This document shows positions 1 to 57,830 of a stretch of DNA of 64,000 bases, one piece after another. The translations under genes and the position numbers were made by a program. Source of the DNA: Squalus acanthias (Eukaryota). Under the pieces are notes generated by a model that saw nothing but the letters and a program-made list of their open reading frames with translations, had not been told where the DNA came from and did not search any database. The stretch is from the NCBI GenBank assembly GCA_030390025.1, contig CM059432.1, forward strand, positions 43,898,001 through 43,962,000, written 5' to 3'. Position 1 is the stretch's first letter. Every line of letters begins with the position of its first letter.

Positions 1-41
1 CTCCTCCATCCTCGCCACACTCGCAGTTACCCTGGATGCAA

Positions 42-4139: not shown

Positions 4140-4410
4140 GGATACAATTTCAAAACGAGAAGTAACAGGAAAGGATGAAATTGAAACAACGCTGCATGGG
4201 CCCCTTAAATACAGTTGGCTGACAGACATCAGCAGAGGCGAGCAGCAGACCCGAAACCACTAACTGGGCCGGGTAGCACGCACGGAGACATTCAATAGGC
4301 CACTTAAGGCAAAATCGCAGTTTCTGACTGGCTGAAAGCGGAGGCAGGACCGGAACCTGCCGAACATCAAACCCGCACCCAACCCGCCTCCATTGATAAA
4401 ATCGCAGCCA

Positions 4411-11954: not shown

Positions 11955-13300
11955 GGCTGTCCCCCATATTTCTGAAGCCTCCCTGGATGTCCTACTGGAG
12001 CCAGGAGCATGGTACTCTACTCTATCACTAACAGGAGCAACCCCAAAGCCACCGTCAGGCAGGCCTGAACAGAGGTAGCTGACAGGTTGAGTCTCAGCAG
12101 TATCACCCCTAGGACCTGGGTTGAATGTAAAAAGAGGTTTAATGACCTCACAAAAGCAGTAAGGGTGAATACAACTCTTTACCGGTCCTCCTCTCTCAAC
12201 AGCAACTCACAACTCTCCACTATGACCTCCCATCCATCACATCCTTCAACATACAATCACATCGGCACACTAAAACACCTTGCCTTATCATTCCAAACAC
12301 ACTCACCTCCTGTTCTGGACTCTTCACACCACACACGAACACCATTTTCTTCTCTATGGCAACCACTTGCCCAAGCACCAACTACTCCCACCACTCTTTC
12401 CTCATATCACATCACACATGCTTCACTTTACATTCATCGTCATTCCATCTTGCTTCTTCTACACCTCTGACCACTATGTGCGCAAGCTCCTCACATCTCC
12501 ACTCATCTTCTCAACAAACACTCACTAGCTCTCAACTTCTCTTTTTGTAGGATAAGACTGCTCATAATGTCAGGTAGAGGAACTGGATGGCTGGAGGTGT
12601 CCCAAACATTATTGCCCTCACAGGCAGAGCAAGAAGCCCTGGATATCACTGGCCCAGGCACGGTCATGAGCATTGATAAAGGAGAGGCTGGTGGCATACT
12701 CAAGTAGGGTGTCTGCATAGTTGTTGTATCTCTTCATTCAACTGAGCACATATACAGTGAGCTTAGCACCTTCAACTTGCATTCTCAAGACTGTCACTGA
12801 TCATGTCCAGCTTCTCTCTTCCATCCTAGCTCTTCTCTCTTTTCTCTTTCTTCCAAGGCCTTCTCAGCACAAGTGGCTCCTACAAAAGAACAGACCTCGG
12901 AGGAGGACAATCCCTCTGAGGTTGCATCATCAGGTGCTCCTCCTCTCCCAGGCACCAGGTCAGACGTTGGCACTCCGCTTGAGCTAGATAGTGAACAAGA
13001 GGAGTCTGCCCGTGGTGCAACACCCAGCACCAGTGGGTAGCAGCAGCTACTGGTGGCAGGTACAGCCTAGGAGTCACCTCGCCAGGAAAATACTCTCTCT
13101 CAGCTCTGCCAAGGATGACAGAGATGAGGACTTTGCAGGCCCAGCTATGATACAAAAACTGCTGGCCTCACACAAACAGCTTCATGAGCTATTGGAAGGC
13201 GTGCAAAGGAGTTTCACCACAATGGCTGAGATTGTGGAGGAGTCCACATCCAGCCTCTATGGTGTCAACTGGCCTCCGATGCCTCAGAGCCAGACTGCCT
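11955..13300 (+). pseudogene. Older Harbinger Myb/SANT gene remnant
   Basis: PRTWVECKKRFNDLTKAVR followed by a GTGAAT donor (~12165). Exon 2 follows TTTTTGTAG at 12551 (DKTAHN). Exon 3-like region 12860-13270. Contains stops and frameshifts. Confidence 0.75.
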
Positions 13301-14054: not shown

Positions 14055-14175
14055 ATAACGTCTTTATATTTTCATCACAATTTGAGCCCTAGATATTTGA
14101 CTTTGTCGGAAAGAAAATGGGTGGATGAAAGGTTTTGGAAAACGTTTTGAGTAATTTAATTGATTTAATTTCTGT

Positions 14176-17083: not shown

Positions 17084-17619
17084 TTGGAGTATATTTAAAA
17101 ATGGATGTATCTGACTTACAGCCCAAATTCTGACCTGCTGTGCCAGAACTACACCACTTTTACACCAACTAAAATTGAAATTTCATGCCTCTAGGTCATA
17201 GCTATCATGCTTAATGTGTGTTGAATTGATTTATGTCTGCAAGGGAAAAAAGTGATAACCTGCTTGCAGGTATTTAGCTGTTTTTATTTATTTGATAATC
17301 CAGAATTTTCATATTTTTTTTCTTTATTTGCTTTTAAGAATTATTCATAGGATTGAGTCAGTGTTTTACTTAATTTTCTACATATATTTTCTTTCCTACT
17401 CCCCTCTCGCAGTGTTCTTCCCTCCTCTCCTCAAGATACTGACTCATGTGATATGGTACAGCCATCGGTCACCTTTCAGTACCTTATCCAAATGGCTCTT
17501 CTTGTCCAAGACTAGATCAGCGAATGGCACTGAGTTTTGATGGTGGAGGTGATCCTGATTCTGTCTTCACTACATTCACGTATATGCATTTTCTAGCAGC
17601 AACACTGGATAATGACCAG

Positions 17620-19379
17620 CGGAGGCGGGATCGCGGCGGGAGAGGTGGTTGGTGGGTTCCGGTCCCGCTCCCGGCTGCAGCCGCTCTGTGAAAAGGATGA
17701 TCAGTTAATAGGGCTTGTTAATCCCGCACTGCGGGGTTCCCAGCCAATTAAAAGGAAGCGGGTCTGATGACATCATTTGATGACTCGTCATCAACCAGTT
17801 TCCTTAAAGGGACCATGGCCGCATTCATTTTGACAGTTGTGCTGTCGGTATTCTGCAGCATTGAGGTGCTGTAAACACTGACAATCACTGCACAAAGGTG
17901 AACGGCTGCACCCAGGCTCACGCATGACTCCCTCCATATGCTTATGGAGGGAGTCACAGAACACAGGGAGTTTCTCTTCCCTTCCAAGGGTGGAAGAGAC
18001 CTCCCCAGGACACCAACGCAGCCTGGTTGCACATTGCACAGGAGGACAAAAGCAGGGATGTCATCAGGAGTACCTGGCTGCAGTGGCGCAAACCTTTCAA
18101 TGATCTCAGTAGATCACGAAACATTACTGCAAAGCCGCACTCAACCTCATCCTACTGTGCCACTCATCACATCCCCATAACTTTGTCTTCCCTACCCTAC
18201 GCCTGCACATCCTTACTCACAACAACTTACCTTGCACCTCCACCCATCCCTCTCTATCTACATTATCACTTCTCCATCTCACTAGCCACCCCTCACACTC
18301 ACCCTCATACTAGTGCAATCATACCAACTAACAACAAACAAGGATAGGCAGTTGGGTGTTTTATGCTATGTTCATGTAAATTTTTTGTTAATGTGTTGTC
18401 AAACATTGAAATATTTAATTTTAACACTTTGCCTTATTGTACAGATCTGTGCTCACCTTTGGAAGTGTCTTAGTGAGTTGCAGTGAATGGTGAGACATAA
18501 CAGTATACCCCGCAATGGTGATGAGTGTGAAAGGAATGGCTTGGGCATTGTAGGAATGCTTTATGGTGCTGGTGTGGGGTGATGTTAACCTGGTGCATCA
18601 TGTGGCAGCCAGGGTGTACAGCGTCAAGTGAAGTAATTCTGGCCATGGTGATGCCATCACTGGCCTCCCGGACAGCAATGTTGTTGGGTGCTGATGCCCT
18701 GTGTCCTGTGCAGCATCAGATGATTGCGGAGAAGGTTGGTATTGTTGTTGGTGATGTTGGTGTGCCTGGTGATGTTGGTGTTGGGGCCGATTGTGGAGGG
18801 ATTCAGAGGACCAAGGTGAGATTTTTTCAAGGGCACCGATGTTGCTGGAATAGATGGCAGCTGAAGTTGAGATGACAGAGGTGATCTGTCAATGGTGAGA
18901 GAGGTTGTTCCAATGAGGTGATAGTGGATAGAGAGTTTACTCCAAACACTTCCAAACTGCATACAGCTCAAAAGTGTCTTCCAAGTCATGAAGGCTCAAG
19001 CTTCTGACATTGGAAAGTGACCAGCTGTGAAATGGTAGCTTTCATACCACTTTTGCAGCTGTCACCTATTCACAGCAATGGGGAGACATAGAGAACCCAA
19101 CCTACTTGCCTGACATGATCTCCGAACAACGTGAACCCCATTAAAAATGTGGTAAAATAGAAAAAGGCGGGCAAAATAGTAGTAAACAAGCACTTAACAA
19201 GCATTTAAGTATCTAAAATGTCTCCCCCGCTGCTTGGTGTCGGGTCTGTTCCGAAATCGCAGACCCGACACTTTTGAAACTTACATGGAGGCGGGGTCCC
19301 AACCCGCTGTCAATCATTTCGATTTTGACAGCGGCCCCACCTCCAAACCCGTACTTTGACCGCCGGCACAATTCAGCCC
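17620..19379. mobile_element. Internally deleted non-autonomous Harbinger (~1.8 kb), same family as 54126-59940 in the opposite orientation
   Basis: Colinear reverse-complement match to 54126-55455 plus 59535-59920. Retains Myb exon 1 (+, HDSLHMLMEGV...WLQWRKPFNDL) and transposase fragments (-). Right end GGGCTGAATT; left TIR missing. Confidence 0.85.
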
Positions 19380-21522: not shown

Positions 21523-22529
21523 GGACTGGATTTTCTTCATTAGCAGATTTATCACTTGACTGTCGTTATACCATCAAGAACCAGTCCCATTTTCCTTAGT
21601 GTACCCTTATTACATGGTAGGTTCCAAACTCATTTATTCTCCCTCAGGGTAGAGCACCCTTCTCAAGCATTTCTGAGGATCGTGGTGAAGTAGCTCTCCT
21701 GGATCAGCAGACGGAGACATCTGGATACTAGTGGGCAGAGGTCAGAAGCCACTTACAGTGCCTGGGATTTCTCTGATGGTCCTCCTGATTCTTCCCTTCT
21801 TCCTGCTCAAAGCAGAGAATCAGGCAGAGGTTTAAAAATAATTAATTTTTTCCCCCAAGGTGCAAGATTAAACTTAATAATCACTGTTAAAAAAAACTTT
21901 AAAATACTTAACAAAATTCTTAAATGTGCCTTTGACATATTTAAAATATTTTTTTTTAAACTTACAAAACTCTCAAAAATGTCTTAAATAGACTTAACTA
22001 TTGTTGTCAAAACTTTACATTACATCACTTCCCTTCAGGCTGCTTTGAATGCCTTCTGGCCTTCAAAGATGGAGGGCTGGATTTTCATAGGGCCGTGGAG
22101 GCGGGTTTGGAGGCGTGTGTGGGGTTAAAATTGCGAAAAGTGGCGGGCGGACCTGATCCCGCCTCCATTCCGCCTCCACGCAATTTTGATAAAATCGTGT
22201 GCGGTGTTCCCGACTCTGTCCCGCCTCCAAGAGGCGGGAGAGGCCATTAAAGCCCTTAACAAGCCCTAAATTGGCTCTGTAATGCCATTTTGAAACGTTT
22301 TAGCTAGTTTAACCCTTTTCCGACATGAAGCACGCCTGATGTGAAACACGCCAGTGAAACCTGGCGGGAGCACAAGTGGATAGCTGACTATCAGCTGCAG
22401 GTCCACTATTACAACGGAGATGTGATGAAGGTAGTAGTAGTAGGTCTGAAAGTCGCCTCTGATGCTGCTGCATTGAATGTCTTCAGAGACTGCCTGGCCT
22501 TTGCTGTGAGAGGACCTGGATGCAAAAGA

Positions 22530-22565
<36 letters not shown>

Positions 22566-23102
22566 TGCTGCTCATTTTGCATCCAGGTCCACTCACAGCA
22601 AAGGCCAGGCAGTCTCTGAAGACCTTCAATGCAGCAGCAATGATGACATCATCAGAGGCGACTTTTAGACTGAAACCACTAATTGGTTCATGGGTTCCCA
22701 CATGCTGGAACTCAATTGCCCGATTAGGTGAAAATTGCATCAATCTCCCACATCCAATTGCAGTCGGGTGGATAACACGAAATGCAGATGACACGACCCC
22801 AACCCGCCCCAGTATCAAAATCCAGCCCGGAGTCTCCCTCCCTAGGGCGTTCTTCCTGCTGCCGGCCACTAGATGGTCCGAGAGGGAAATTTTGCTCCAC
22901 TTGAAACCTCTCATCATTATTTACATGTGGTGGGGCAAGGATGCAGCGGGTGAAGCTGCCTGCATCCAGCGAGGCTGGAGGGAAATCTTGCCGGTAATAT
23001 ATTACACTGGAGATCTGGTGTTGGGCCTTAAAGACCTATTTTCCTGGTTGGCAGTCTGAGTATGTCTGAAAATGGGCAGCTAAATGGAGGCAAATCCAGG
23101 CC
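21523..23102. mobile_element. Older Harbinger-type non-autonomous element hosting 22074-22828
   Basis: Ends GGACTGGATTTT / GGCCTGGATTTG; flanks TAT/TTT. Confidence 0.55.
22074..22828. mobile_element. Non-autonomous Harbinger with an internal fold-back
   Basis: Perfect 12-bp TIR GGGCTGGATTTT; TSD GGA/GGA. Right ~200 bp homologous to 30680-30888. Confidence 0.9.
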
Positions 23103-26100: not shown

Positions 26101-27163
26101 CATTTCAAAAGTGTGGCAAGGACAGTGGTTGGGAGAACCCTGGTGGAATAAGAGGAACTTCCTTGAGGCTGGGGTTATGATGTGCTGTTGAGCTGAAGCA
26201 GAGGGAACTTCATTGCACTTCTGGCTCATATCCTATTCCTGAGCTAAGAGTACTTCATGCCAATATTATATCGACCAAGTCTCCTGACCTACCCCGGATC
26301 ACCTGAGGTGACTCCCAATGTTGCACCAAACCTTCCAGATGTCCAAACAGAGCAATGGAACAGTGCAGTTGGGAGCTGGGACAGGTGATCCTGGATCCTC
26401 CCAAATAATACAAACCAAATTATATTAATACATTGTTCCTCTGGAACAGTTAGCTTATTTCACCTCAGTTTGTTTTTTTGCATTGTAAGACATAGGAACA
26501 GGAGTAGGTCATTCAGCCCCTCGAACCACTATTCAATTAGATTATGGCTGATCTGTACCTCAACTCCATTTACCCGCCATATCCTTTGATCAATTTGTGC
26601 CAATAAAAATCTGTCGAACTCAGTCTTGCAAATTTCAATTGGCCCAGCATCCACAGCACTTTTGGAGGAAAGAATTCCAGATTTCCACAATCCTTTGTGC
26701 AAAAAATGCATTTTGATTTCACCCCTGAATGGCCTAGCTATAATTCCAAGATTGTGCCCCCTTGTTCTGGATTCCCCCACCAGAAGAAATAGTTTCTCTG
26801 GGCTGGATTTTGCCAGGCCTGACAACCACTTAAGTGCCTCTATAATGCCATTTTGAGAGGCCTTTCTGAGTTTAATACATTTCCCCCGTGCTGTACATCT
26901 TCCCTGGAACACGCCAGTTAATCCTGGTGGGCTCACAAGTGGATGGCTTACTAACAGCTGCAACTCCACCATAAAAAAGGAGTTTTCAACAATGGTCATT
27001 TGCAGGTGGCAGAACTTTCTTTTCTCAGGTCTGGGAGAACTTTTTGCAGCTCTACTCATCTTGGAAGTTTTGAAGCTGAGATCCATCTCCACTGTGATCT
27101 CCTGGGAAACCCCTCTCCCCACCTTGACTGAGCGCTTCCTCAACTGAGGTATATACCAGCAGC

Positions 27164-28403
27164 ATGGGAACCATTTATTTCCTTTCCTCCTGGACGTCAG
27201 ATTCGGACGAAGACCAGCCGTGGCAGCAGCAGAACCCTGAACAACAGCAGCACCAACAGCAGGAGAAACAACAGGAGCGCCAACCTGCTGCTCACCCACC
27301 TGAAGCTGCACAGGCCAGAAGGCGCCAGTGCATGGAAGCACGTCGCCGCAGGAGATACCCCCAAAACAGGGTTTACATAAAGAGGTTGAGCTACCTCAAC
27401 ATAACTGAGCAGCAGTGCCAAAGGAGGCTCAGACTTTCGCGAGAGGTAGTGGGTGACATCTGCGCAATGCTGCAGCAAGATCTGGAGCCCAGAGGAGCGG
27501 GTGGACGGCCCTTACCAGTGGCCGTCAAAGTCACCACCGCACTCAACTTTTTTGCTTCAGGCTCATTCCAGGGATCAACAGCAGACATCAGAGGCATCTC
27601 CCAGGTGGCCGCACACACTTGCATCACGCAGGTAACTGATGCCCTCTTTGCCAATGCGCACAATTACATCAACTTTTCCAAGGAGCAAGCAAGTGTAACC
27701 GCGCATGCGGTTGGATTTGCTAATCTGGCAGGCTTTCCAAGGGTGCAGGGCATCGTTGACTGCACAAATGTGGCCCTTAAGGCACCCCATCACAATCCAG
27801 GTATTTTTGTCAACCGCAAGGGCTTCCACTCCCTCAACGTGCAGCTGGTGTGTAACCACAATAAGGAAATTTTGCATGTTGGCGCCAAGTACCCTGGCAG
27901 TTGCCATGACTCCTTCATCCTGCGGCAGTCTAGTGTGCCTCCGCTCTTCAGTCCGCCAGACCAACTTTGCGGATGGCTACTTGGAGACAAGGGCTATCCC
28001 CTGAAGATGTGGCTAATTGAGTAAGCCATCCAACGAGGCTGAGGAGTGCTACAACTCCAGCCACATTTCCACCAGATCCATAATCGAGCAAACTATCGGC
28101 TTGCTGAAGATGCGATTCAGATGCCTTGATAGAACAGGTGGAGCCCTGCAGTACTCAGCAGCCAGGCTCTCCAGAATTGTCATGGTCTGCTGTGCACTTC
28201 ACAACATGGCACAGCATCGTGGCTTGCAGCTGCCTGAGGTACAAGTGGCTCATCGCATAGCCTCCTCAGATGAGGACGATGAAGAGGAGGAGGAGAGCGA
28301 CAACGAAGAGCTTGCGGAGGCGCATCAACCAGCGGCAGCAGCACGCGAGCACATTGCTGCCCGCGAGGCAAGGGATGCACTCAGCTTGGCCAGATTTGCT
28401 TAG
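27164..28403 (+). pseudogene. Harbinger DDE transposase (DDE_Tnp_4, HARBI1-like), frameshifted at ~28017
   Basis: Motifs [56 protein letters not shown]. Short deletion in the WLMTP motif. Confidence 0.92.
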
Positions 28404-28669
28404 GCTGCCCAATCAAACACATTTGCCTCGCACCTTCTTACCAGAGCTTGGATAATGGCCAAGAACCTGCGGATTCCTATCACTCTGACCACCATACTGA
28501 CAATTCCAATTTGCCCTGAGCCCTCAATGTGGAAGTCCCATTTGCAAAATGACACAGCCCACAACTTCAATTGTTTGCCATCAAGTTGTTTTATCACATA
28601 AATTCACGATGGCATTTCAGAAATAAACACAACAGAACACCCAAGTAACTACCCTTGTGACTACTCGTG

Positions 28670-30607
28670 CTTTATCTTCCTCTTACGCGTGCTTCTACAT
28701 AGTGCTTCCCCTGTGGCTTCAGCAGATGTGGAGGCCCCTTGCTCACTTTCTTGCTGCTCCTGCCTCGACACCTTTGGCGGGCGTCCTCTGGGGTTGTGAG
28801 CCTGTGAGGGCTTGCCAACAGTCTGCTGCTCCTGCGGCTGTGCAGGGGCTGAGACACCGATCTCAGATGGGTGAAGACTCTGGTGGGGCTATGACCGAGG
28901 GCTCTGCAGTGGCATGGTCGTGTGAGCGCTTGGAGAGGAGCCCCCACTTCCTTGTTCTCTGCCACCAACAACCCTCTCATGGGTCAGCCCCACTTCAGAG
29001 CTAGCAAGTGGCTTGACAGCACCTTGCTGCACTTCAGGGTGGGCCATGAGGACCCGTTTCTGCACTGGAAGTCCTACTCCAGAGGACTTCCATGAAGGTC
29101 TGGTTTCTCTGCTCAATAGCTGACCATTGCTCCTCCAGAGATGTCAGACTATTCTGAACAATGACCATGTTTTCAAGACCCTGGCGACTTAGCTCCTCCA
29201 TGGCCATAGCCATCCTCTCCTCTACGGTAGCCAGCCTTACCACAGAGGTTGCCATCCTTTCTGTGGTGATGCGTTCATGCGCCAATGCCTCCACAAAGGC
29301 TCTGCTCATGTTAGCGATGGACTCCTCCATTCGTTCCACACTCACAGCGACCCTGGAGACAAAACCTGTCAAAGACTCCTGCACTTGTTCCTGGAGTTCC
29401 AGCACCGCTCCTCTTCTGGATGGACCCGGAGGCACAGCGCCCACATGCAGCTGAGCCGAGCTGGGAGAGTCCTGCGCCCTCCGACGAGGACTCTCCACTG
29501 CTGTCCCTGTCTCCACCATCTGCTGATGCTCACTTGTGAGCTGTGATACACCAGGTGACAACACTACTCTATGTCCCGAAGGTCCCACCGAAGTGTGAGT
29601 GTCTGCGCTGGTGCTGGGTGCGTTGAATTCTGCTGACGGAGCGCCCTCAGAGGTTGCAGCTTCTTCTGAGGAGTCTGAGGGCTCAGGCTCTTCCTCCTGG
29701 ACAGTGGGGAGGGGGGCTGTCGATGGACCTGTGGAGGAGTAAAGGAAAGAGTTAGGCATGTGAGATAAACGTTGCATGCACATTGAATTGTGCAGATGAT
29801 CATAAGTCAATCTGTTAGAGCATTAGAATCAAGATCTGTCACTCATGCAATGTCAATGAGAGAGATGAAAAGCTATTCTGTCACCAGCTTGCTCTGATGT
29901 GCCCGTCTGTCCATCCCCCACTTGCGCATCCTCCTTGACTCCCATGATCTCCAGGGCCGCCTCCTTTGCACTGGTGAGCTGGGCTATTGAGGGTGGCCCT
30001 TCTCCTGTCCTCGCCCTTTCCCTCTTATTGTGGGCCCTCTTTTCCTACAATGAGGGACACAAGTGGCGTTTGAGTGAGAATGAAGGAGTGAGTGTAGAGA
30101 ATCCATAGCATTGATGCTTAGAAGGACACAAAGATGGAGTGAGGTCCCAAGACCAAGTAAGTTGTTGTCATAGCATCACAGTGATAGGGAGTGTGAGGGC
30201 TGTATAGTCGAATAGTTAAGTGAATGTGAACATACAGAGAGAGGGAATGGTTAAGGGTGCAGGGATGTAAGGGTCAAGTGGAATGTGGAGGAGGAGGTTG
30301 ACAAAGCAGAGTGCTGGTGATGAGAGGCGATGGGGATCCGATTGAGGGTCATGGTGATGTAATACTCACTTTTCCTGTGCGGAGAAGGTCATGAAACCTC
30401 TTTCTGCACTGCAGCCAGGTTCTGCTGCACATTGAGATGGCACTCACCTCCTGTGCCACTTGCAGCCACACAGCTTTGGTCTGTTGGGGAGTTTTTTCCT
30501 CCCAGAAGAAGGAAAAAGCACTTCCTTATTAGCTCTTGCTCCCTCCACCAGAGCTTGGAGGGAGTCTCATCAAAACGGGGTGCACACTTTGGTCTGGAGC
30601 TTGCCAT
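28670..30607 (-). pseudogene. Harbinger Myb/SANT gene, three exons, frameshifted
   Basis: Exons ~30607-30370, 30044-29885 and 29728-~28670 with GT/AG borders. Frameshifts in exons 1 and 3. Confidence 0.88.
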
Positions 30608-32579
30608 GGTTAGAGCCCTAATCCCTCAGAAGTCTAATCAAAAAGTTGTAAGGCTGAAAAAAAACCAAGGCTGCTTGCAGGCCTTAAATGCAGCTGCATA
30701 GATGACGTCATCAGAGGCGAGTTTCAGGACCAAAAGACTCATTGGGCCAGGGGTTCCCACACGCTGGAAATCAAGTGCCCAATTAGGGTAAAATCCCTCA
30801 ATTGTCCCACCTCAATTCGGAGGTGGGGGCGGGACCTGCCAACCACCTGACCTGCCCCCAACCCGCCCCCAATGACAAAATCCAGCCCTCTGTATCTACT
30901 CGAGCAAATTATTTAATCACTTTAAACATCTTTTAATTAATTAGACCCTCAATCTTCTAAACGCAAGGGAATACAAACCAAGTTTATGCAACTTGTCCTC
31001 ATAATTTAGCCCTTTAAGCCCCGGTTTCATTTTGGTAAATTTGCACTGTGCCAACTCCAAGGCCAGTTTATCTCTCCCAAAGTGTAGTGCCAAAAACTGC
31101 GTTACTCCAGCTGGAGTCTGACCAAGGCTTTGTACAACTGAAGCATAACTTCCTCCCCTTTGTATTTCAGACCCCTTGAGATAAAGGCCATCAGTGTTTT
31201 TGATTACTTTTTGTATATGTGTATTAGCTTTTAGTGATTTCTGTACCTGAGCACACAAATTCCTTTGCTCCTCCACAGTTACTAATCCCTCGCCATTAAG
31301 AAAATATTCCAATTTGTCTTTCTTGGATCCAAAGTGGATGACCTCACACTTTCCCACATTGAATTTCATCTGCCATAGTTTTTTCCACTCACTTCGTCTG
31401 TCTATGTCCCTTTGTAACTTCTTGCTCCCATCTACACAATTTAGTGTGCCTTCTAACTTAGTGTCATCTGCAAATGTGGATATATAACTCTCTGTTCCTT
31501 TATCCAAGTCATTGATATATATGGTTAAAAGCTGAGGCCCCAGTACCAATCACTGGAGAGCACAACTTGTCACATCGCGCCAATCAGAGTATATTCCCTT
31601 TATCCCTATTCTCTGTCTCCTACCTCCCATCAATTACTAACCCATGTCACAAGAAACACAATCATACACACCATTGGAATGAATGTAGTTACTGTCAGTC
31701 TTAGAACGTGGTAAGTTAAATCTATAACGTTCTCAAATGAACAGGGCTATCCTGACAAACTGGGTAAGAAAATTCACTGGAATGTCTGAATGGACATTTA
31801 TTGTTGCAGATCGAAGTGGTATGCGATAAGCAACATTCCACAAACTAGTTCATCTGGCTCTAATAAACATCTGCCAACTCTCCTTAAGAGCAAAATTTCA
31901 CAGAAATCATACCAAGATCTTTCCATGGTGAAATAGAAATCACAAAATGTGACATTAATAATAATATTTTTCATCCCAAATTTAATCCTAGTTATAATAC
32001 ATATTTTGTACTAGCATGGTTACATATTCTGCCAAAATACATTACAAAGGCATAAGAATTACCCTAGTATTTTTCCAAATGATAACGGGGGTGAAATTGG
32101 TCTTTGGCGGGAGAACAAAATGGGCGATAATGAATCGGCAGCCCATAGAAGTCAACAGGAAAGAAAATCAGGCAGGATATAAAACGGGCTGCTGCTGCTG
32201 AAGACCACTTGCACCCCCAACAAGTCAGGTTGGTTTCCGGATTTTGCATGTCTAATACGCCACTTAAAATTTCTGTGAAGCTAGTGCAACCACCACATAT
32301 CTTGGAAATCTATTTATGCAGATTCAGAGACAGGGATCAGAAACTGTCCTACACCAGTAAATGTAATCAGGTTCTCATCTATAATATGTGGAGCTACTCA
32401 AGTTGTCCATACACCTGTTATCATCAATGTCAGCAAGAATACAGCACATCCTCTTTGTAGCAAAGTCTGCAATGGCAACAATACTTTATGTCATAAATCA
32501 GTGTAGCAAGTATTTACATGTATAATTGATTTTCTATTCTTTTCATATAAGTATCCTAAGACTATCCTTTGGCGAAGTT

Positions 32580-37960: not shown

Positions 37961-40050
37961 TACATATGGAGGAAGATCCATTGGATTTTACTAGAGTTGT
38001 TGTACTATTTATTCTTGACACCAAAATAATATTTTAAATAATTTGCTCTTAATTCATAGTTGTTTAATTTAAATTATCTGATAATTCAATTTTATTTAGC
38101 ACTAAATTCCCACTTTGCTGCATTATTTATGTTGTTTAATTCAAATTCCCATTTTGAAGCGGAAAAATAACTTATAATTGCTAGGAGTAGACGGTATCAT
38201 GGTGCATTTCAAGAGTAGCGATATGGGCAATGAAAACCAAAGTGTGACAGGAAGGGACAGAGCGTACAAACATAAGAGTGCACCAGCAAATAAGGTCAGA
38301 ATAGAGAAAAATGATAAAAAGTTAAGATTAAAGGCTCTTTATCTGAATGCACGCAGCATTCGTAACAAGATAGATGAATTGACGGCACAAATAGAAATAA
38401 ATGGGTATGATCTAATAGCCATCACAGAGACGTGGTTGCAATGTGACCAAGGCTGGGAACTGAATATTCAGGGGTATTTGACATTTTGGAAGGATAGACA
38501 GAAAGAAAAGGGAGGTGTGGTAGCTCTGTTAATAAAGGATGAGATCAGTAGAATAGTGAGAAATGATCTTGGCTCGGAAGTTCCAGATGTAGAATCAATT
38601 TGGGTGGACGTAAGAAATAGTAAAGGAAAGAAGGCGCTGGTGGGAGTCGTCTATTGGCCCCCTAACAGTAGCTACACTACAGGACAGAGTATAAATCAAG
38701 AAATAATGGGGGCTTGTAAGAAAGGTACTGCAATAATCATGGGCAATTTTAATCTTCATATAGATTGGACAACTCAAATTGGCAAAAGCAACCTTGAGGA
38801 CTAGTTCATAGAGTGTATTCAGGACAGTTTCTTGGAACAATACATTGTGGAACCGACCAGGGAACAGGCTATTTTAGAACTGATAATGTGTAATGAAACA
38901 GGATTAATTAATGATCTCATAATAAAGGATCCTCTGGGGAAGAGTGATCATAACATGATAGAATTCCACATTCAGTTTGAAGGTGAGAAACTTGGGTCTG
39001 AAACTAAAGTATTAAACTTAAATAAAGGCAATTACAAAGGTATGAGGAGAGAGTTGGCTAAAGTGGACTGGGAAAATAGATTAGAAGGTAAGATGATAGA
39101 AAAGCAGTGGCAGACATTTAAAGAGATATTTCATGATGCTCAACAAAGATATATTTCAGTGAGAAAGAAAGACTCAAAGAGAAGGATGAACCAACCATGG
39201 CTAACCAAGGAAGTTAAGGATGGTATCAAATTGAAAGAAAAGGCGTACAATGTTGCAAAGATTAGTGGTAGGCCAGAAGATTGGGAAAATTTTAGAAACC
39301 AGCAAAGGATGACTAAAAAAAAATAAAGAGGGAGAAAATAGCTCATGAGAGTAAACTAGCAAGAAATATAAAAACTGACAGTAAGAGCTTCTACAAGTAT
39401 ATAAAAAGGAAGAGAGTAGCTAAAGTAAACATTGGTCCCTTAGAGGATGAGACTGGGGAAATAATAATGGGAAACAAAGAAATGGCAGAGGCATTGAACA
39501 AATATTTTGTATCTGTCTTCACAGTAGAGGACACTAAGGGGTAAAAATTCAGTTGGTTGTGCCTCCCGTTAGCGCCTTAAGAGGGCGCTAATGGGGCGCA
39601 AAGCCGCTAACGCCCGGGCGCAGCGATGTTTGCGCCGCTCGAGAACTTAACTAGAGATTGTGCGGCGGCGCTAAAACTTACCGCTGCGACCACCTGCGCG
39701 CGCAGATTATGACGTTATTCCATGGTGCAACGCCCTTGTGGCGCCCCGGAGCGGAAATTGAGTGGTGCCCCCTGCCTTACCGCCTGGCGCTTCCAACGAC
39801 CAGAAGACTGGAACGCTATCAATCGCTGTGGGGCTGGGGGGGGCGCTATTTAAAGGGGGCCTCTTCCTGTCTTTTTCTGTGGTCGACATTTATGCACCAC
39901 TCGTTCTGAGAGAGAGAGAGAGAGATTCGGAGAGAGAGAGAGAGAGACTTCTACATTGACTCAACGCTTTGTGAGGTAGTTTTGCCTATTCATCCTAACT
40001 TTGTTGCTACTTTAGTTGCTGTTCCTCATTACTTTGCTTGCAAAGAGAAT

Positions 40051-41211
40051 ATGGGGGCTGCACTGATTGGGGGCGTCGTCCTGCTCCAGCTGAATCGGAG
40101 GATACAGAGACGCAGAGAGAGAGTGGCAATGATGGCCAGATGGAGGAGGGCCATCAGGCGCATGTACAGGAGAGCTTACCCTCCCAGGGTATATCGTGAA
40201 CAGCTCTCCTACATCCATATGTCCGAGGAACTGTGTTTGCGAAGGCTGCGATTCAGCAAGGAGGTGGTCACTGAGCTCTGCCACCTGCTGTAGCCAGATC
40301 TGCAGCCTCAACTGAGGTCCAGGACGTCTCTGTCGGTGGCAGTGAAGGTCACAGTGGCTTTGAACTTCTACGCCACTGGCTCATTCCAAGCTGCTGTTGG
40401 GGACCTCGCCAATATCTCCCAGTTCGCGGTGCATTGCTGCATCCGGCAGGTCACAAATGCCCTCTTCAGAAGGAGACGAGATTTCATCTCTTTCCCTATG
40501 ACCCCAGACAAGCAGCGTGACCGCGCTCTGGGCTTTGCGAGGGTAGCGGGCTTCCCCATGGTGCAGGGCGCCATTGACTGCACGCATGTGGCTTTGCGTG
40601 CTCCGCGTGAGAATGCAGAGGAATTCAGGAACAGAAAGGGGTTCCATTCCTTGAATGTCCAGTTGGTCTGTGACCACAGACAGCTGATACTCGCTGTCAA
40701 TGCCCACTATCCTGGCAGCTGCCACGATGCTTTTATCCTGCGCCAGACTACTGTGGCAGAACTTTTCGAGGCACCGCATCAGCCAGTTGGTTGGCTTCTC
40801 GGGGACAAGGGGTATGCATTGAGCACCTGGCTGATGACACCGCTCCGTACGCCAAACACCCCTGCTGAGCTGCGGTACAATGAAAGCCATCAAGCAACCA
40901 GGAACATTATTGAGTGCACAATCGGCGTGCTGAAACAACGGTTCCGCTGTCTGGACCATTCCGGAGGCGCCCTGCAGTACTCGCCTGAGCAAGGATCGAA
41001 CTTCGTAGTCGTGTGCTGCATGTTGCACAACATGGCAATCCTCAGGACCCAGCCAATGCCACCAGGCCTTGTAGCACCACCAGAGGAGGAGGAGGAAGAG
41101 GAGGAAGAGGACGAGGACGATGATCATCAGCAGCACCAAGGCGGGAGGGCGGCCCACAATGGTCAAACTGCAAGGGCCGTCCGTCAACGGCTAATAGCAA
41201 GCCGCTTCTAG
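40051..41211 (+). pseudogene. Harbinger transposase (386 codons) with one in-frame TAG at 40291-40293
   Basis: ORFs 39982-40293 and 40336-41211 are in the same frame. GAIDCTH, YPGSCHDA, GDKGY and RNIIE motifs present. Confidence 0.92.
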
Positions 41212-41498
41212 GGCCCCTGCCATTGCTACCAACATTAATCAACCCAGCACGCAACCCCTAAGCCGGCCAAGGCACCAATAATTCCAACCACCAGCCATGT
41301 ATATTTTGAATACAGAAACTTATTTATTTTACAAACTCTGTGTGTGTCAATTCCTCATGACAAACTCATGGAAATAAACACAAAAAAACAGTCAATAACA
41401 TAACTGGTTCTCACAACCTGGAGATAATGTCCAAAACACTAAACAAAAGTTGGACCATGAACCTCGGCCTTTAATAAAAAAATGACCAGCATTTTGTC

Positions 41499-43429
41499 CT
41501 ACTTTTTGCCCTTCGAGGGTGATCTCCTTCCCTTGCGCACTTCCCCCCTTCTAACCCTACTGCTCCTCCGTAATGGGACCTCAGTGGCTGCAGCAAGGCT
41601 GGTGGAAGGCTGCTGCTCGTCAGACCCTGACACTGCAGATGCCACTGAAGGACGGCCTCGACCACTTCTGGGCCTGGAGGGCCCGGCTGCAGACTGCACC
41701 AACTCTGCATGGGCGGCAGCAGTCTGTCCTACAGGCGGTGGCAAGTGCAGTGGAGAAGTGACAGTGTTGGCAGCAGGAATGCTGTCATCGTGAGAGAGGA
41801 CAGCAACTCCCTGCTCGCCCGACACACTGGCACTCCCACGGGGCAGCACTTCAGCATCCGGAGCAATCTGCCGGAGAACAGATTGCTGGCCTGCTGCGGC
41901 GCGGTGACAGCCCCGGGGACATGTGCACGAACCATCGAGGTTGGCAGCAGTCTGTGCTTGCGTGGCCTCAATCTGAGTCTGTATGAGAGCAGTCAGAGAT
42001 GGGATCACGGCAGCCAGTGACTGAATTGCAGCACTAAGCATTAGTGTGGCATCCGCCTGTGCTACAGCGAAGTGCTCCACACTCCTTGCCAGTGACTCAA
42101 TGCATTCGGGCACCCTTCCCACTGCACCCATGAGCTCAGTGTGCATGCCCACCGCCTGGGTGTTCATTTCTGCGATCAGCCGCTCCTCCTCTGCGTCCAT
42201 TGCAGTAGGAGTGTCTGGCATACTCTCCCTCTGGGGAGAAGGCCCCCGTTCTTCCCTACCCCCCCCATGGCGTTGCTGCAGCCCGCTGGGTCCTGGAGCT
42301 TCACCCTCATCAGACCCTTCCCCCCTGCTCCCCTCCGGGGAAGGCGTGTTCCCAGTGTGGGCATGGGCTTCCTCGGGAGAGGGTGGCACTGATGCTCTGG
42401 CTTCCTCTTCCTCCTCAGCTGCAGCATCACTCCCAGTGGCAGCTTCAGGGCCCGTCTCCTCAGCTGGTGAATCACCATCTGAAAGCAGGGAGGTACAAGA
42501 GTGGCTTTAGCGTGAGGACAGGGTGGCAGTAAGGGAGGAATAAGTGCAGCGAGTTAGCAAGTTGGATTGAAAGTGTCAAAGGCTGGTGTTGTGAGGGACA
42601 AGTGGAAGGACAGAGGACAAAAAGGTGATGACCTTACCATTGCTGTCCAGAACGGGGTCGGCGTCTCCAGTGGCGACGGGACCGATCACCCGGCTTGCCA
42701 CAATCCTGTGGACGCGCTCCTCCAGATCGCTGAGGGGTTGCAGCTGAGGCCGCTCTCCACCTGTCCGTTGCTGCTGTCTCCTATTATGAGCCAGCTTAGC
42801 CTGCAAGAAAAAGGACAGCATCTGAGTAAATATACAGCCATGGTCTTGCCTGATGTGCCTCCCATAGGTGAATAGCCCTTACTGTATGCAGCCATGGTCT
42901 TGCCTGATGTGCCTCCCATAGGTGAATAGCCCTTACTGTTTGCAGCCATGGTCTTGCCTGATGTGCCTCCCATAGGTGAATAGCCCTTACTGTATGCAGC
43001 CATGGTCTTGCCTGATGTGCCTCCCATAGGTGAATAGCCCTTCCTGTATGCAAAGTGTGGAATGTGTGTGTGTGTTTGATGAAAGGGCCATAGGTGTTGG
43101 ATGAGTGTTGTGCATTGGGGTTTTAAGACCCTCTGGCCATAGAGTGAGGTTGAGATGGAGGGATGGAGAGGTATTGAGAAAAAGCCACTCACCCTGACGA
43201 CCCGAGTGAGGTCGTTGAACTTTTTGCGGCATTGAGTATGGGTCCTGGGCACCATGCTCCTGGAGGAGACGCTCTGAGCCACCTCCCTCCACACTCTTCT
43301 GAACTCGCGTGGCAAAGGCCTCCTGCCACTCTCAGGGAACAGCATACATCGTCTGTGCTCCACTGCGCCAACCAGAGCATCCAAGGCCCGCTCGGTGAAG
43401 TGATGAGCGCGTTCTCTCACCCTCTCCAT
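41499..43429 (-). CDS. Harbinger Myb/SANT DNA-binding protein, apparently intact three-exon gene (~459 aa)
   Basis: Exons 43429-43193 (237 bp), 42800-42638 (163 bp) and 42478-41499 (980 bp) with GTGAGT/CAG and GTAAGG/CAG borders. Sum 1380 bp, in frame, no internal stop; basic C-terminus. Confidence 0.85.
42835..43050. repeat. Four copies of a 54-bp tandem repeat in Myb intron 1
   Basis: Unit CAGCCATGGTCTTGCCTGATGTGCCTCCCATAGGTGAATAGCCCTTACTGTATG, nearly identical copies. Confidence 0.97.
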
Positions 43430-45506
43430 GCTTGGCAGCAAAATGGATTCACAGGTCTCTCCAGGCTGAGATTCAAGGCTGCAATGAGCAGGGTGTGGCT
43501 GGGGAGCAAGTGGCCCCCCCCCCCGCTTTAAGAAGTGGCCGGCGCCAGTGTGTCTGTGTTCCCTCGCTAACTGGCAGCAGCTGCGCTGCGCTCGCGCGCT
43601 GAGTTAGCGCCTCACTCCTTGGCCTTTGCGCCTTAAGACAGGTGTGCAGCGCCTGCTTTAGCGCTCCACTCACCTCCCGGGGCGGTAAAAGTGAAGTTTC
43701 CAGTCAGTGCCGATAATTAGCGCCAGGCGCTAATATTTGCGTCCAGACGATATTTGCGCCCCAAATGGGGCGCGACCTAATTTCTACCCCTAAAAACATC
43801 CCAGTAATAGTAGAAAATCAAGGGGCAAAGGGGAGGGAGGAACTTAAAACAATCACTATCACTAGAGAAAAAGTGCTGGGCAAACTTATGGGTCTAAAGG
43901 CTGACAAGTCCTCTGGACTTGATGGCCTGCATCCTAGGGTCTTAAAAGAAGTGACTACAGAGATAATGGATGCATTGGTTGTAATCTTCCAAAATTCCCT
44001 TGATTCTGGAAAAGTCCCAGCGGATTGGAAAACTGCAAATGTAATGTCCTTATTCAAAAAAGGAGGGAGACAGAAAGCATGAAACTATAGGCCAGTTAGC
44101 CTAACATCTGTCATTGGCAAAATTCTCAAATCCATTATTAAGGAAGTAGTAGCAGGGCATTTAGAAAATCATAATACAATCAAACAGAGTCAACATGGTT
44201 TTATGAAAGGGAAATTGTGTTTGACAAATCAATTAGCGTTCTTTGAGGAGGTAACGAGTAGGGTGGATAAAGGGGAACAAGTAGATGTAGTGTATTTGGA
44301 TTTCCAAACGGCATTCGACAAGATGCCACAAAAAAGGTTACTGCATAAGATAAGAGCTCATGGTGTTGGGGGTAATATATTAGATTGGATAGAGGAATGG
44401 CTAACTAACAGAAAACAGAGAGTCGGGATGGCAATCTGTAACTAGTGGGGTGCCACAGGGATCAGTGCTGGGGCCTCAACTATTTTCAATCTATATTAAT
44501 GACTTGGATGAAGGAAGTGAGTGTATTGTAGCCAAATTTGCAGACGATACAAAGATAGGTGGGAAAGCAAGTTGTGAGGAGGACATAAAGAGTCTGCAAA
44601 GGGATATAGATAGGTTAAGTGAGTGGGCAAGAATTTGGCAGATGGAGTATAATGTGCGAAAATGTGAAGTTATCCACTTTGATAGGAAGAATAGAAAAGA
44701 AAAATATTATTTAAATGGAGAAAGACTACAGAATGCGATGGTATAGAGGGATTTGGGTGTCCTCGTACATGAAACACAAAAAGTTAACATGCAGGTGCAG
44801 CAAGTAATTAGGAAGGCAAATGAAATGTTGGCCTTTATTTCAAGGGGGATAGAGTATAAAAGTAGGGAAGTCTTGCTACAACTGTACAGGGCGCTGGTGA
44901 GACCACACCTAGAGTACTGCGTACAGTTTTGGTCCCCTTATTTAAGGAGGGATATACTTGCATTGGAGGCACTTCAGAGAAGGTACTCTAGGTTGATGCC
45001 TGGGATGGGAGGGTTGTCTTATGAGGAAAGGTTGAGCAGGTTGGACCTATACTCATTGGAGTTTAGAAGAATGAGAGGTGAGCTTATTGAAACATATTAG
45101 ATTCTGAGGGGGTTGTACAGGGTAGATGCTGAGAGGATGTTTCCCCTCGTGGGGGAATCTAGAATGAGGGGTTGCCCATTTACGACGGAGATGAGGAGGA
45201 ATTTCTTCTCTCAGAGGGTCGTGAATCTTTGGAATTCTTTACCCCAGAGAGCTCTGAAGCTGAATCATTGAATACATTCAAGGCTGAGATAGACAGATTT
45301 ATGAGCAACAGGGAAGTCAAGGGTTATGGGGAGCGGGCAGGAAAGTGGAGTTGAGGCCAAAATCGGATCGGCCATGATCTCATTAAATGGCGCAGCAGGC
45401 TCGAGGGGCCGAATGGCCTGCTCCTGCTCCTATTTTTTATGTTCTTATGTAATGCTGATATTTTTGTATATGGTGCATGACCAGTTGTGTGTCTTTTTAA
45501 AAATCA

Positions 45507-47754: not shown

Positions 47755-49839
47755 CCCCCCCCTTACTGATAGATGGGGGGTGGGGGCAAAATGCCAGATC
47801 CTTTAACAAGTGAGAAACAAAATCATTACTATTCATGATGGGAGTCTTATTTTATACAGCTTTGATTTTTTAATATATATGGAATCATGGTCCCTGTAGA
47901 GACCCCAAATCTACATTGCCCAATAGATAGAAATGAACAGTTGAGAGGCAGAGATTCCTAGCACAAATATGTCATGATCAAGCAAAACATGAAGAAATTT
48001 GGAGGCCCAAAGCTCTACAAAATTTAGAACAACTGGGAGGCACAGGTTTGCCCTTGATTTAAAGAGATAAAATGTTGTCCCTTTAAAACCCTGTCCTGAT
48101 AGTAGAAAACCTGTCACCCAATTCCAAGATAATTCAGAATTCTCAGATTTTATTTTCGTCACTGAATTTTGTTCAATTTGAGAAAATCTTTTTGGAGTGT
48201 TTCATTAATATTCAACAAACACACACAGTTAAAAGGTGTTTGTAATATCTCACCTATTTCTCTATGAACCAATATTGGCCAGAATTGCAAACTTTAAAAA
48301 AAATCTGATGATCAAAGAAATATTCTAATACATTACATTTATCTAGCTGGTGGACTGTTTGAATTATAAAAGCATTATGAAGCCTTCAAAGCTCTTTTTG
48401 ATTTCAAAACCCTCTTCCCAACTCAGTGCCAAAAATAAATCTCCACACCTGTCTATATTCATTTATCTCCATACCACCTGTTCAGAGATATTGGTATCAT
48501 CCAGGTTGCAAGTGGAAGGGCGCTTTTGGCGGACTTCCACCAGTTTTGAGAAACAATTCTGCCCAGTGGACTCTAACAAGTCATCCATCATGACAACACA
48601 AAGATTTCCGTCAGCACAAAAGTTTTTTCTGCAGACAGAGAATTCAGATATCCAGTCGCATAACACACCTATAATTGCAGTTCAGTATCAGAATAAGCCA
48701 GAAATTAGACCTTGATTCTTATTAAGATCATTGCAGTTATTCTTAACTGGTAACCTTGTTAGAAAACTCTGCAGAAAATGCCACAAACAATTCAGAAAAT
48801 AATTGTTTATTTTATTAAAATATATAATTTACCTTTTTAATAACTTGTTAAAAAATATTTTTAAATCACTTCTAGATCCATGCTTTTCTTCCCCAAATGC
48901 CAGAAACGGGTTACTATTATTTAAAAAAGTAAAATATATATGTTGCAGAGTGCCCCTCTGTCCTAAACCTCTGAAGTCATTTTGATTTTGTGCCTCCCCT
49001 TTATTCTCTGTGTCTTCATTTCCAATGTAGATGTGTCTTTTTTACAAAACAAAATCAGGTAGTTCATAAAATAAATTGCATGAATTGATATTTTCATTTA
49101 GACCATATATATTACTGGCCTTTTAAGTCAACTTTATAAAATAATGTGAACACTATAAGCAATTTACAAATATATACCACTTAGAAACACTAAAAATGTC
49201 TCTGAAAGTATACCTAGCTATGAGAATACATCTCATATTATGAGATAAATGAAAGTACCACATAATAGACTTGTTAGCAAAATTAAAGGGGATTAAAGGG
49301 GCAGTGGCAGCATGGATACAAAACTGGCTAAGGGACAGAAAACAGAGAGTAGTGGTGAATTGTATGTTTTACAGACTGGAGGGAAGTATACAGTGGTGTC
49401 CCCCACTGGTCGGTATTAGGACCACTGCTCTTTTTGATATATATTAATGACCTGGACTTGGGTATACAAGGCATAATTTCAAAGTTTGCAGATGACACAA
49501 AACTCTGAAATGTACTAAACAGTGAGGAGGATAGTAGCAGACTTCAGGAGGACAGAGACAGACATAGCGGCTTTGATTTTAATGGAGGAGGCGGGATGGA
49601 ATCGGGTTGCCTGATGGGCAGGTTTCGGACCCGCTGCCGGTTTCAGCCGCTCCCGGTGTCCCATTTTGATTTAATTGGACCAATTAGTCCCGTCGTGTGC
49701 GCTGTCTGTTGCAATGAGGTGCAGCGGGTCTGTTGGTCTGCACTGATGAGGTCTTTGCTGCACTTGTTTTTAAGGGCTCCATGTAGCCTCAGCCTCTCAT
49801 TTCTCATTGCTGCTGCTGGAAAGGGCCAGGATCACCATA

Positions 49840-51850: not shown

Positions 51851-52152
51851 AAGTTAAAGCACAAATAGTCACAAGGGTAGTCACTTGGGTGTTTTATAGT
51901 GTCGTTAAATATCGAGTGTCATCCTTTTGTGATGTAATTAAATAAAAGTGATAGCCAGAACCTGAACTCTTTGCCATGTGTTCTGGGAAATGGAAGTTCA
52001 AGAGTGAGGGCTCAGGGCTAATTCCATTTATAATGATGGTGGTGAGAGTGAGTGGAAACCACCGTTTATTGGACAGATGATGCATGAGATTTTGAGAATG
52101 TCGGCCTTATATTCATCTCCATCAGCCAGCCACCTGTGTTTGAAGCGTAAGC

Positions 52153-57639: not shown

Positions 57640-57830
57640 CACAGAATCACCACAGTGCAGATAGAGGCCATTTCGGCCCATCGAGCCTGCACCGACATAT
57701 CCCACCCTATCCCCGTAACCCCACGTATTTAATTCCCCCCTAACACTCACAGTCACCCGAGGCCGGATTCGAACCCGGGTCCCTGGCGCTGTGAGGCAAC
57801 AGTGCTAACCACTATGCCACCGTGTTGCCC
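57640..57830 (-). mobile_element. Short tRNA-derived SINE with CR1 tail (HE1-like)
   Basis: A box GGTGGCATAGTGG, B box GGTTCGAATCC, CR1-like tail. TSD TTCCTT (57634-57639 and 57833-57838). Confidence 0.88.

Follow-up and report, generated by a model that had tools for sequence, protein, structure and literature searches.

Uneven divergence along coexisting shark Harbinger transposons and a possible exchange of their interiors

In three close Harbinger copies (A, B and D) of Squalus acanthias, exon 1 of the Myb-like gene and the Myb-side end are older than intron 1, exon 3 and the transposase core, and dS is therefore not uniform along the elements. We infer that the interior is younger, rather than more constrained. 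With chances that we put slightly above even, coexisting Harbinger families have exchanged interiors while keeping their own ends, probably through ectopic gap repair or gene conversion. A mosaic history had been proposed in a sequence-only reading of this DNA, and it is still the best reading given the age of exon 1 and the Myb end; what finds no support is a one-sided cassette of terminus and exon 1, since each of the two ends carries a divergent zone of about 0.5 kb and old islands lie inside.

Harbinger copies in the window

The window, i.e., the whole stretch of 64,000 nucleotides that was analysed, holds these three copies and several relatives (Table 1). A, B and D are PIF/Harbinger transposons that have decayed. 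Short TIRs and 3-bp TSDs are found in B, E and F, the transposase is of the HARBI1 type (DDE domain PF13359, E=8e-17), and its 96 homologues are mostly shark and ray proteins annotated as "putative nuclease HARBI1". Exon 1 encodes a trihelix domain (PF13873, E=8e-10 in A and 6e-8 in D) that in copy A is predicted to form a three-helix fold (mean pLDDT 83), and the folds that best match this model are the Zeste DNA-binding domain (5cqq, TM 0.71) and the GT-1 trihelix (2ebi, TM 0.68), both with probability 1.00, E about 0.1 and 17-20% identity; a PDB sequence search gave no relevant match. A full HMMER scan returned 38 homologues of the Myb-like protein, and a word-index search among longer proteins returned none (0/4471 candidates for exon 3, 0/52 for exon 1). 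Among metagenome contigs no further DNA copies were found with the exon-3 pattern (0) or the exon-1 protein (0/600 candidates confirmed), and the intron pattern had 0 matches in viral contigs.

PIF/Harbinger transposition needs both proteins, and both genes of B carry frameshifts. The predicted exon/intron model is based on GT/AG signals, on joins that keep the frame and on homologues from sharks, whose match to exon 2 begins at residue 78-81; none of the 15 joints listed from run contigs is a splice joint (there were 182 further joints). After 26821, B lacks about 185 nt of the outer subterminal DNA with its motif array, which is still present in MITE E, and loose contig ends fall at 26822 in two DNA sequencing runs (31 and 53 contigs, aligned at 88% likeness, from 4/24 runs, with no RNA run listed). 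Summed over these contigs, depth on intron 1 and exon 3 exceeded that on exon 1, exon 2 and the Myb end; it carries no weight here, since contig depth does not rank the parts of a gene. Truncation of copy A at 1438 was ruled out, as the copy resumes at 1-41 and then leaves the window edge; the insertion at about 1734-3271 is CR1-like. Copy C was used as outgroup and decay control, and Harbinger F as a control for long-term constraint.

Table 1. Harbinger copies, their predicted parts and their relatives in the window
Feature	Position	Strand	Remarks
Copy B, two-gene PIF/Harbinger element	26800..30888	.	13-bp TIRs GGGCTGGATTTTG / CAAAATCCAGCCC; 3-bp TSD TCT/TCT
B transposase-side end and 5' UTR	26800..27163	+	zone divergent from D
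B transposase, PF13359 DDE_Tnp_4	27164..28404	+	small frameshifting deletion near 28020
B intergenic region with convergent 3' ends	28405..28661	.	high-divergence interior island, 89/257 vs D
B Myb-like gene, exon 3	28661..29728	-	frameshift near 29040, premature stop at 28891
B Myb intron 2	29729..29884	-	GT..AG, 156 nt
B Myb exon 2	29885..30044	-	synonymous divergence 0.35-0.48, above both adjoining introns
B Myb intron 1	30045..30369	-	325 nt; sense strand G-poor (G 0.11), C-rich
B Myb exon 1, trihelix DNA-binding domain	30370..30607	-	1-nt deletions near 30567 and 30492
B Myb-side end	30608..30888	-	GCRGGT at 30834, 30850, 30861 (offsets 49/33/22 from end)
Copy A, Myb-side part	3272..4409	-	Myb end, exon 1, intron 1, exon 2, partial intron 2
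A exon 1, open reading frame	3900-4139	-	
A intron 1	3561-3899	-	donor AT
A exon 2	3401-3560	-	
A exon-3 piece	1438..1733	-	split off by CR1-like insertion ~1734-3271
A exon 3, continuation	1..41	-	past 1.4-kb TG...CA insertion
Copy D	49569..53910	+	strand of D Myb gene
D exon 1	up to 50079		
D intron 1	50080-50419		
D exon 2	from 50420		
D insertion	50664-50856		
D transposase	from 53371	-	
Copy C, deleted non-autonomous relative	17612..19379	+	has exon 1 and 5' half of intron 1
Copy C'	54126..59940	-	pieces 54126-55455 and 59538-59940, interrupted; family as C
MITE E	22074..22828	+	B-type TIRs on both ends; TSD GGA/GGA
Harbinger F, distant, two-gene	39538..43790	.	GGCGC/TTAGCG subterminal motifs; TSD TAA/TAA
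Gene G, distant decayed Myb-like gene	11982..13300	+	

Divergence along the elements

The contrast between A and B that had first been noticed, 26/86 differences in exon 1, 6/70 in intron 1 and 1/92 in exon 3, was reproduced exactly in ungapped blocks that align at zero offset only. It holds region-wide and in all three pairs, although the intron and exon-3 blocks were the best stretches of their regions. Counted over whole regions, the A-B differences are 72/238 (exon 1), 50/321 (intron 1), 30/160 (exon 2), 24/129 (intron 2), 33/296 (exon 3) and 105/270 (Myb-side end), so that the contrast amounts to about 30% vs 16% vs 11% instead of 30% vs 9% vs 1%. Synonymous sites of exon 1 (38/54) against intron 1 (50/321) give a Fisher p of 1e-15.

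Copy D has a third exon-1 variant, as claimed (74/240 from A, 88/238 from B). Exon-1 pS is 38.0/53.8, 34.5/57.3 and 39.8/54.8 in the three pairs (0.60-0.73), near saturation in every pair, and pN is only 0.19-0.27, a mark of long purifying selection. Intron 1 differs at 50/321, 54/336 and 72/322 positions (0.16-0.22), spread evenly in B (16-22%), and exon-3 pS is 0.14-0.22. Between B and D, 40/55 synonymous sites differ in exon 1 vs 56/152 in the transposase core (p=7e-6). Protein identity among the copies is 46/78-49/78 aa in exon 1 and 71/92-81/98 aa in exon 3. CpG decay was rejected as the source of exon-1 divergence, given 2-4 CpG, more transversions than transitions and dN far below dS.

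Over longer distances the rank is inverted, and the regions least diverged among A, B and D are those that distant relatives lose first. Between A and F, conservation is highest in exon 1 (33/74, z=26); exon 3 (z=1.4) and the transposase N-tail (z=0.5) give no alignment to F, and intron 1 aligns to F and G no better than shuffled sequence does. With two Heptranchias homologues the match is 46-57% in exon 1 and 32-36% in exon 3, and the N-tail aligns in 0/96 transposase homologues.

The divergent zone of about 0.5 kb is symmetric, with change-points 470-530 nt from the Myb end (change-point LLR 40-60 in all three pairs) and 483 nt from the transposase end of D; at the transposase side, B and D diverge by 40% outside the change-point at 27119 and by 19% inside. 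D had been said to have different ends around a similar core, which is borne out by 40-48% divergence at the Myb end and 135/364 differences from B at the transposase end, although part of what sets the transposase-side end of B apart is its deletion of subterminal DNA. Change-points at the exon-1/intron boundary vary by pair (A-B -52..-40, A-D -10..+14); that of A-B lies 49 nt inside exon 1 (p=0.07), so the helix-3 codons may, on this weak sign, go with the core.

Inside the elements, old islands comprise exon 2, part of exon 3, the intergenic region and the DDE core. Exon 2 lies above both introns (p=0.001-0.016), the intergenic region differs at 89/257 positions vs 72/322 in intron 1 (p=0.0015), and the DDE core is more diverged than the N-tail (p=0.005), B vs D pS being 0.31-0.46 in core and C-terminus and 0.17-0.21 in the N-tail. 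Most of exon 3 of B is little diverged; the exception is the island at 29186-29054 (pS 0.38, pN 0.32 vs D). In the C/C' pair, ends are 17-23% different vs 9.5% inside, and exon 1 (21/236, 8.9%) equals intron 1 (20/220, 9.1%); an intrinsically slow mutation of the intron is thereby ruled out.

The introns have three-state columns at only 2/111 variable positions, vs 9/57 at exon-1 third positions (p=0.001); the variable columns are evenly scattered (p=0.39), and the longest invariant run is 17 (p=0.35). Simulations of an old but constrained intron (600 runs for each of 6 settings) gave 11-19 three-state columns (rounded P(<=2)=0.000), and those of a young intron gave 5-8, a marginal fit (P=0.02-0.10); young settings that overshoot the number of variable columns also misfit (P<=0.001). 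With so few multiple hits, the introns look younger, not constrained, and the parts differ in age. Branch lengths of exon 1 and intron 1 are non-proportional (LRT p=0.005), a test confounded by post-insertion decay and by the lack of coding constraint in C. Intron sites variable between B and D differ from the outgroup more often than others (20/39 vs 46/165, p=0.007), so that rates are to some extent heterogeneous among sites. Little G (0.06-0.11) and much C mark intron 1 of A, B, D, C and G, as well as its first 150 nt in F, that of gene G (12165-12551) being unalignable yet G-poor (G 0.07); only 26/1158 background windows of 330 nt, the G-poor introns included, have G<=0.12. A hidden ORF in intron 1 was rejected, with stops in the six-frame translation and 28/29/27 variable columns by frame. 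Rfam gave 0 matches over 26700-31000, and the consensus fold of intron 1 is weak, with 2/33 pairs compensatory.

Tests for recombination cover the three close copies with low power, and among A, B and D they gave homogeneous branch proportions across 7 regions (chi2=11.3, df 12, p=0.50), no significant MaxChi breakpoint (p=0.16-0.72), no significantly long identical runs (p=0.36-0.90) and 6/6 non-significant window scans including 1-41 (p=0.14-0.50). With five sequences, the (A,B) topology is accepted for exon 1 (AU 0.77) and intron 1 (AU 0.52), and (B,D) is rejected for exon 1 only (AU 0.023); for intron 1 it ties for the best topology. At 1-41, copy A has 39/41 identity to D and 32/41 to B and sides with D at 7/7 informative sites, against 15:18 elsewhere in exon 3 (post hoc p=0.011), which is a local hint of A/D affinity. 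Congruent trees combined with uniform dS had been named as evidence against a mosaic; the trees of A, B and D are congruent in part, with no significant conflict at this low power, and dS varies by region.

Explanations of the uneven divergence

After excision, gap repair would begin at the ends of the element itself, with the sister chromatid as template, take a related copy as template further inside and then come back; dispersed gene conversion would have the same effect. Because such repair begins at the own ends, exchange tracts should be rare within a few hundred bases of them, and exon 1 would be old mainly because it lies inside this end zone. Mismatch, or selection against chimeric domains, would hinder exchange in parts that have already diverged or are co-adapted (the Myb domain, exon 2, part of exon 3 and the DDE core), and introns and low-complexity tails would be exchanged freely. 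No co-adapted partner suggests itself for the intergenic island, which is 35% diverged; this counts against interior exchange. More tentatively, and with some doubt, shark Harbinger families might be likened to incipient species with gene flow, in which introns and unstructured coding DNA are swapped while ends and folded modules act as barriers. Ectopic repair would be the route, exchange would be routine and the backbone continually homogenised; the barrier loci would be the ends, the Myb domain with its helical region and the DDE core, so that family identity would sit in a few old islands, and the G-poor intron 1 may be a preferred exchange tract.

Other accounts do without exchange. If all regions share one history under nucleotide-level constraint, a cis function, for example regulated splicing via C/U/A-rich protein-binding sites, would slow the evolution of intron 1, of the N-tail and of parts of exon 3 in active lineages. 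The G-poverty of intron 1 even in the unalignable F and G suggests function, site rates correlate with the outgroup (p=0.004-0.007) and there is no significant tree conflict; we nevertheless find this account unlikely, because over 325 nt the intron must equal Myb replacement sites (distance ~0.17-0.27 vs dN 0.22-0.33) with no conserved blocks and hardly any multiple hits, neither F nor G aligns to it, it has no Rfam match or covarying structure (2/33 pairs), and the same low distance in unrelated regions would be coincidence. It is also quite unlikely that the outer ~0.5 kb of active elements simply mutates faster, e.g., by end processing or repair synthesis at transposition, with selection filtering exon-1 replacements and dS saturated. 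Such hypermutation would fit the symmetric end zones, the equal branch proportions in all regions and the ends of the non-autonomous C/C', which are likewise 2-fold more diverged, but leaves the interior islands (exon 2, intergenic region, DDE core) unexplained and is at odds with exon 1 of C/C', which is not raised; we know of no such mechanism acting on end zones.

The sequence-only reading had a cassette of terminus and Myb exon 1 that is exchanged as a whole on a common core and brings new end specificity, which now appears very improbable. Exon 1 is indeed older than the transposase core (p=7e-6), and divergence drops near the exon-1 donor. Residue 73 in helix 3, which we take to be the recognition helix, is His in B and Asn in A, D and 26/37 homologues, although His73 may be a private decay mutation. 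Against a cassette, W65, Q67-F72, D74 and L75 of helix 3 are identical among A, B and D, both ends are divergent, and a GCRGGT array (<=1 mismatch) stands at offsets 22/33/49 in the Myb ends of A, B and D, with the candidate motif at 27/39 in the transposase ends of D, E and C'; the truly different motif, GGCGC/TTAGCG of the F/H family, comes with a difference over the whole length. As the candidate motifs keep the same register, no new end-recognition specificity is evident, and the A, B and D families probably all still recognise the same GCRGGT-type sites. Virtually no weight is left for noise about one divergence level from chosen blocks and small samples: the earlier intron and exon-3 blocks were the best of their regions, but the whole-region p=1e-15 (A-B) and the change-point LLR of 40-60 in all pairs refute it.

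Known systems and meaning

If interiors are exchanged, Harbinger ages and trees drawn from a whole consensus or from the transposase alone mix histories, and a "family" is defined by its ends and a few domains. Interior exchange, if true, would also provide a high-copy natural system for mapping the transposon modules that must co-evolve, and would qualify the published view that recombination between Harbinger sublineages is rare (PMC9179366). Modular switching of end specificity finds no support in A, B and D.

In Harbinger3_DR and vertebrate PIF-Harbinger elements, a subterminal motif is bound by the Myb-like protein, which also takes the transposase into the nucleus (PMC9710019, PMC2836001, PMC9179366). 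The shark copies resemble these elements in their two genes (a DDE_Tnp_4 transposase and a Myb/SANT trihelix protein), short TIRs and 3-bp TSD; they differ in that shark families coexist with a young interior shared under old ends, and in a candidate motif, GCRGGT, read from sequence, where the zebrafish motif has 9 bp. Among teleost Harbingers, the transposase tree and the Myb tree disagree for four elements, and recombination was suggested to be held back by the co-evolution of both proteins (PMC9179366). That study concerns protein domains only, whereas the shark signal lies in silent and intronic sites, between close families and within the Myb gene. A literature search covering few subscription journals found no paper that compares the divergence of introns and exons, or describes an exchange of interiors, in shark Harbingers.

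For Tc1, Fischer et al. reportedly described in 2003 a sequence exchange by template switching in gap repair. Mosaic copies of a DNA transposon that arose through inter-element recombination are described for Pokey of Daphnia (PMC3575242). In the shark copies, exon-1 silent sites are near saturation and the scans located no explicit breakpoint; and where Pokey and Tc1 involve near-identical alleles or copies, the shark partners are 10-25% apart inside.

Harbinger elements in the window

The elements are ordinary PIF/Harbinger members in repeat-dense DNA, and all DNA comparisons are between copies inside the window. In a homologue search, the transposase came closest to "putative nuclease HARBI1" proteins from sharks and rays, which points to a cartilaginous fish as the likely host. 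A domain search matched exon 1 of copies A and D to PF13873, and exon 1 of A is predicted to fold as a trihelix, with Zeste and GT-1 as the closest structures. On the transposase side, ~185 nt of the subterminal array found in D, E and C' are missing from copy B. Contigs of 4/4 sequencing runs joined the flanks across B, as expected if B lies inside a repeat with many copies, of which the others carry no insertion.

Coordinates of elements and related features
Feature	Position	Strand	Description
Copy A	3272-4409, 1438-1733, 1-41		copy related to B and D
Insertion in exon 3 of A	42-1436		1.4-kb, TG...CA ends, short inverted termini; looks like a solo LTR
Copy B	26800-30888		TIRs 13-bp, target duplication TCT
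Copy B transposase		+	DDE_Tnp_4 match
Copy B Myb-like gene		-	three exons
Missing subterminal array in B	26821-26822
Flanks joined across B	26799-30950
Intron 2	29729-29884		compared among A, B, D
Copy D	49569-53910		two-gene copy related to A and B
C/C'	17612-19379 / 54126-55455, 59538-59940		more distant family, deleted
E	22074-22828		MITE carrying B-type TIRs
F	39538-43790		distant family; two genes, long open Myb exons; second Harbinger lineage with H
Repeats in F intron 1	42831-43052		54-bp tandem repeats, n=4
H	14175-14949		MITE of F
G	11982-13300		distant family
Repeats in Myb-side end region of G	11311-11814		tandem, C-rich, units 19-75 nt
Further Harbinger-type MITE	60941-61890		GGGCTGAATTTT end, partial similarity to C
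G-poor intron 1 stretches	30045-30369, 3561-3899, 50080-50419, 18125-18344, 12165-12551, 43043-43192

Divergence profile and age of the low-divergence regions

The divergence pattern among A, B and D is real and unusual. The A-B counts of the sequence-only reading (26/86 in exon 1, 6/70 in intron 1, 1/92 in exon 3) were reproduced exactly, for blocks that represent the best case.

Differences between copies
Region	A-B	A-D	B-D	Coverage
Myb end	105/270	108/267	131/271	whole region
Exon 1	72/238	74/240	88/238	whole region
Intron 1	50/321	54/336	72/322	whole region
Exon 2	30/160	38/160	49/160	whole region
Exon 3	33/296	34/281	37/281	only part covered by A

Synonymous changes predominate in exon 1, where the proportion of synonymous differences (pS) is 0.71, 0.60 and 0.73 (A-B, A-D, B-D) against a nonsynonymous proportion of 0.19-0.27, the mark of prolonged divergence under purifying selection and of neither decay nor positive selection. 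pS is 0.35-0.48 in exon 2 and 0.14-0.22 in exon 3. Between B and D, it is 0.17-0.21 in the N-terminal part of the transposase (N-tail) and 0.31-0.46 in the core and C-terminus, with the two copies differing at 89/257 intergenic positions. Intron 2 carries 5 transitions and 22 transversions among A, B and D, a transversion excess that contrasts with the 18 transitions and 8 transversions of a young repeat pair elsewhere in the window.

Four tests favour low-divergence regions that are young rather than constrained. Over large evolutionary distances, exon 1 is retained best (A vs F, 33/74 identical); exon 3 (z=1.4) and the N-tail (z=0.5) could not be aligned, and exon 3 of G aligned weakly (z=7.8) in one of three frames. 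The introns of F and G gave no alignment to those of the other copies. Among 38 Myb homologues, nine matched exon 2 and four exon 3; two from Heptranchias drop from 46-57% identity in exon 1 to 32-36% in exon 3, and none of 96 transposase homologues aligned to the N-tail. Among A, B and D this order is inverted, with amino-acid identities of 59-63% in exon 1 and 77-83% in exon 3.

Three-state columns number 2 among 111 variable intron columns versus 9/57 at exon-1 third positions, and no clustering of variable intron columns was detected among A, B and D. Simulated old-but-constrained introns never matched the observed three-state count; simulated young introns matched it marginally (P 0.02-0.10). 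The C/C' decay control gave 21/236 in exon 1 and 20/220 in the intron. Branch lengths of exon 1 and intron 1 were non-proportional (p=0.005), a comparison confounded by decay and by C's loss of function.

Proposed interior exchange and rival explanations

The reading we favour, as somewhat more probable than not, is that coexisting families exchange interior DNA. The likely route would be repair of excision gaps with ectopic template switching, or alternatively dispersed conversion. Under both routes the ends would remain untouched, and old islands would be left by mismatch or by selection against chimeric domains. MaxChi, run tests and six window scans among A, B and D were negative, with low power for three close sequences, which also leave little power in the homogeneous branch proportions across regions (p=0.50). 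One topology was accepted for exon 1 as well as for intron 1. A sweep of the interior common to all three copies would produce no tree conflict; the negative outcome stands nonetheless. The only hint of recombination from direct tests, at sequence level, comes from the 41 nt of A that lie at the edge of the window, where A agrees with D at 7/7 informative sites (post hoc p=0.011).

Nucleotide-level constraint is an unlikely explanation of the profile. There are signs of intron function, in that site rates correlate with the outgroup (p=0.004-0.007) and G-poor composition is retained even in unalignable families; Rfam and fold tests on the intron found nothing. On the sense strand, Myb intron 1 holds 6-11% G and is C-rich in copies A, B, C, D and G, as are the initial 150 nt of the F intron. 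Hypermutation of the ends appears more doubtful still: interior islands of divergence occur in exon 2, in the intergenic region and in a helical stretch of exon 3. Between C and C' (17612-19379 vs 54126-59940), the ends differ by 17-23% versus 9.5% for the interior, exon 1 not being raised; the old-ends pattern is thus also present in a non-autonomous family without intact genes.

It had also been proposed that a "terminus + exon 1" cassette was swapped onto a shared core, creating new end-recognition specificity, which we regard as improbable. Judged by synonymous differences between B and D, exon 1 (40/55) is indeed older than the transposase core (56/152), but divergent zones of similar length occur at both ends. 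Relative to the exon-1 donor, the Myb-side change-points fall at -49, +9 and -16 nt, placing them 470-530 nt inside that end; on the transposase side, the change-point falls 483 nt inside the end of D. A new specificity finds no support, as A, B and D share the GCRGGT register and helix 3 is nearly unchanged. GCRGGT, a candidate Myb site, occurs with <=1 mismatch at offsets 22, 33 and 49 of the Myb end (A, B and D) and at offsets 27 and 39 of the transposase end (D, E and C'); end divergence sits between the motifs, which are themselves spared. Helix 3 (65-79 in the predicted structure), which we take to be the reading helix of the exon-1 domain, keeps W65, Q67-F72, D74 and L75; its one candidate change, Asn73 to His, is seen in B alone and may be private to this copy. 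The F/H lineage carries different subterminal motifs (GGCGC/TTAGCG) and diverges along its whole length. Noise is a negligible prospect.

Comparison with known systems

Our literature search, in a library with few subscription journals, found no report of this intron/exon/terminus divergence pattern. Recombination among DNA transposon copies was reportedly described in a Tc1 study. For Harbinger3_DR, published work shows that the Myb-like protein binds both the transposase and a subterminal motif of 9 bp (PMC9710019, PMC2836001). Recombination was judged rare among teleost Harbingers, with four possible cases, in one study (PMC9179366), and among DNA transposons it is already known in Pokey (PMC3575242).
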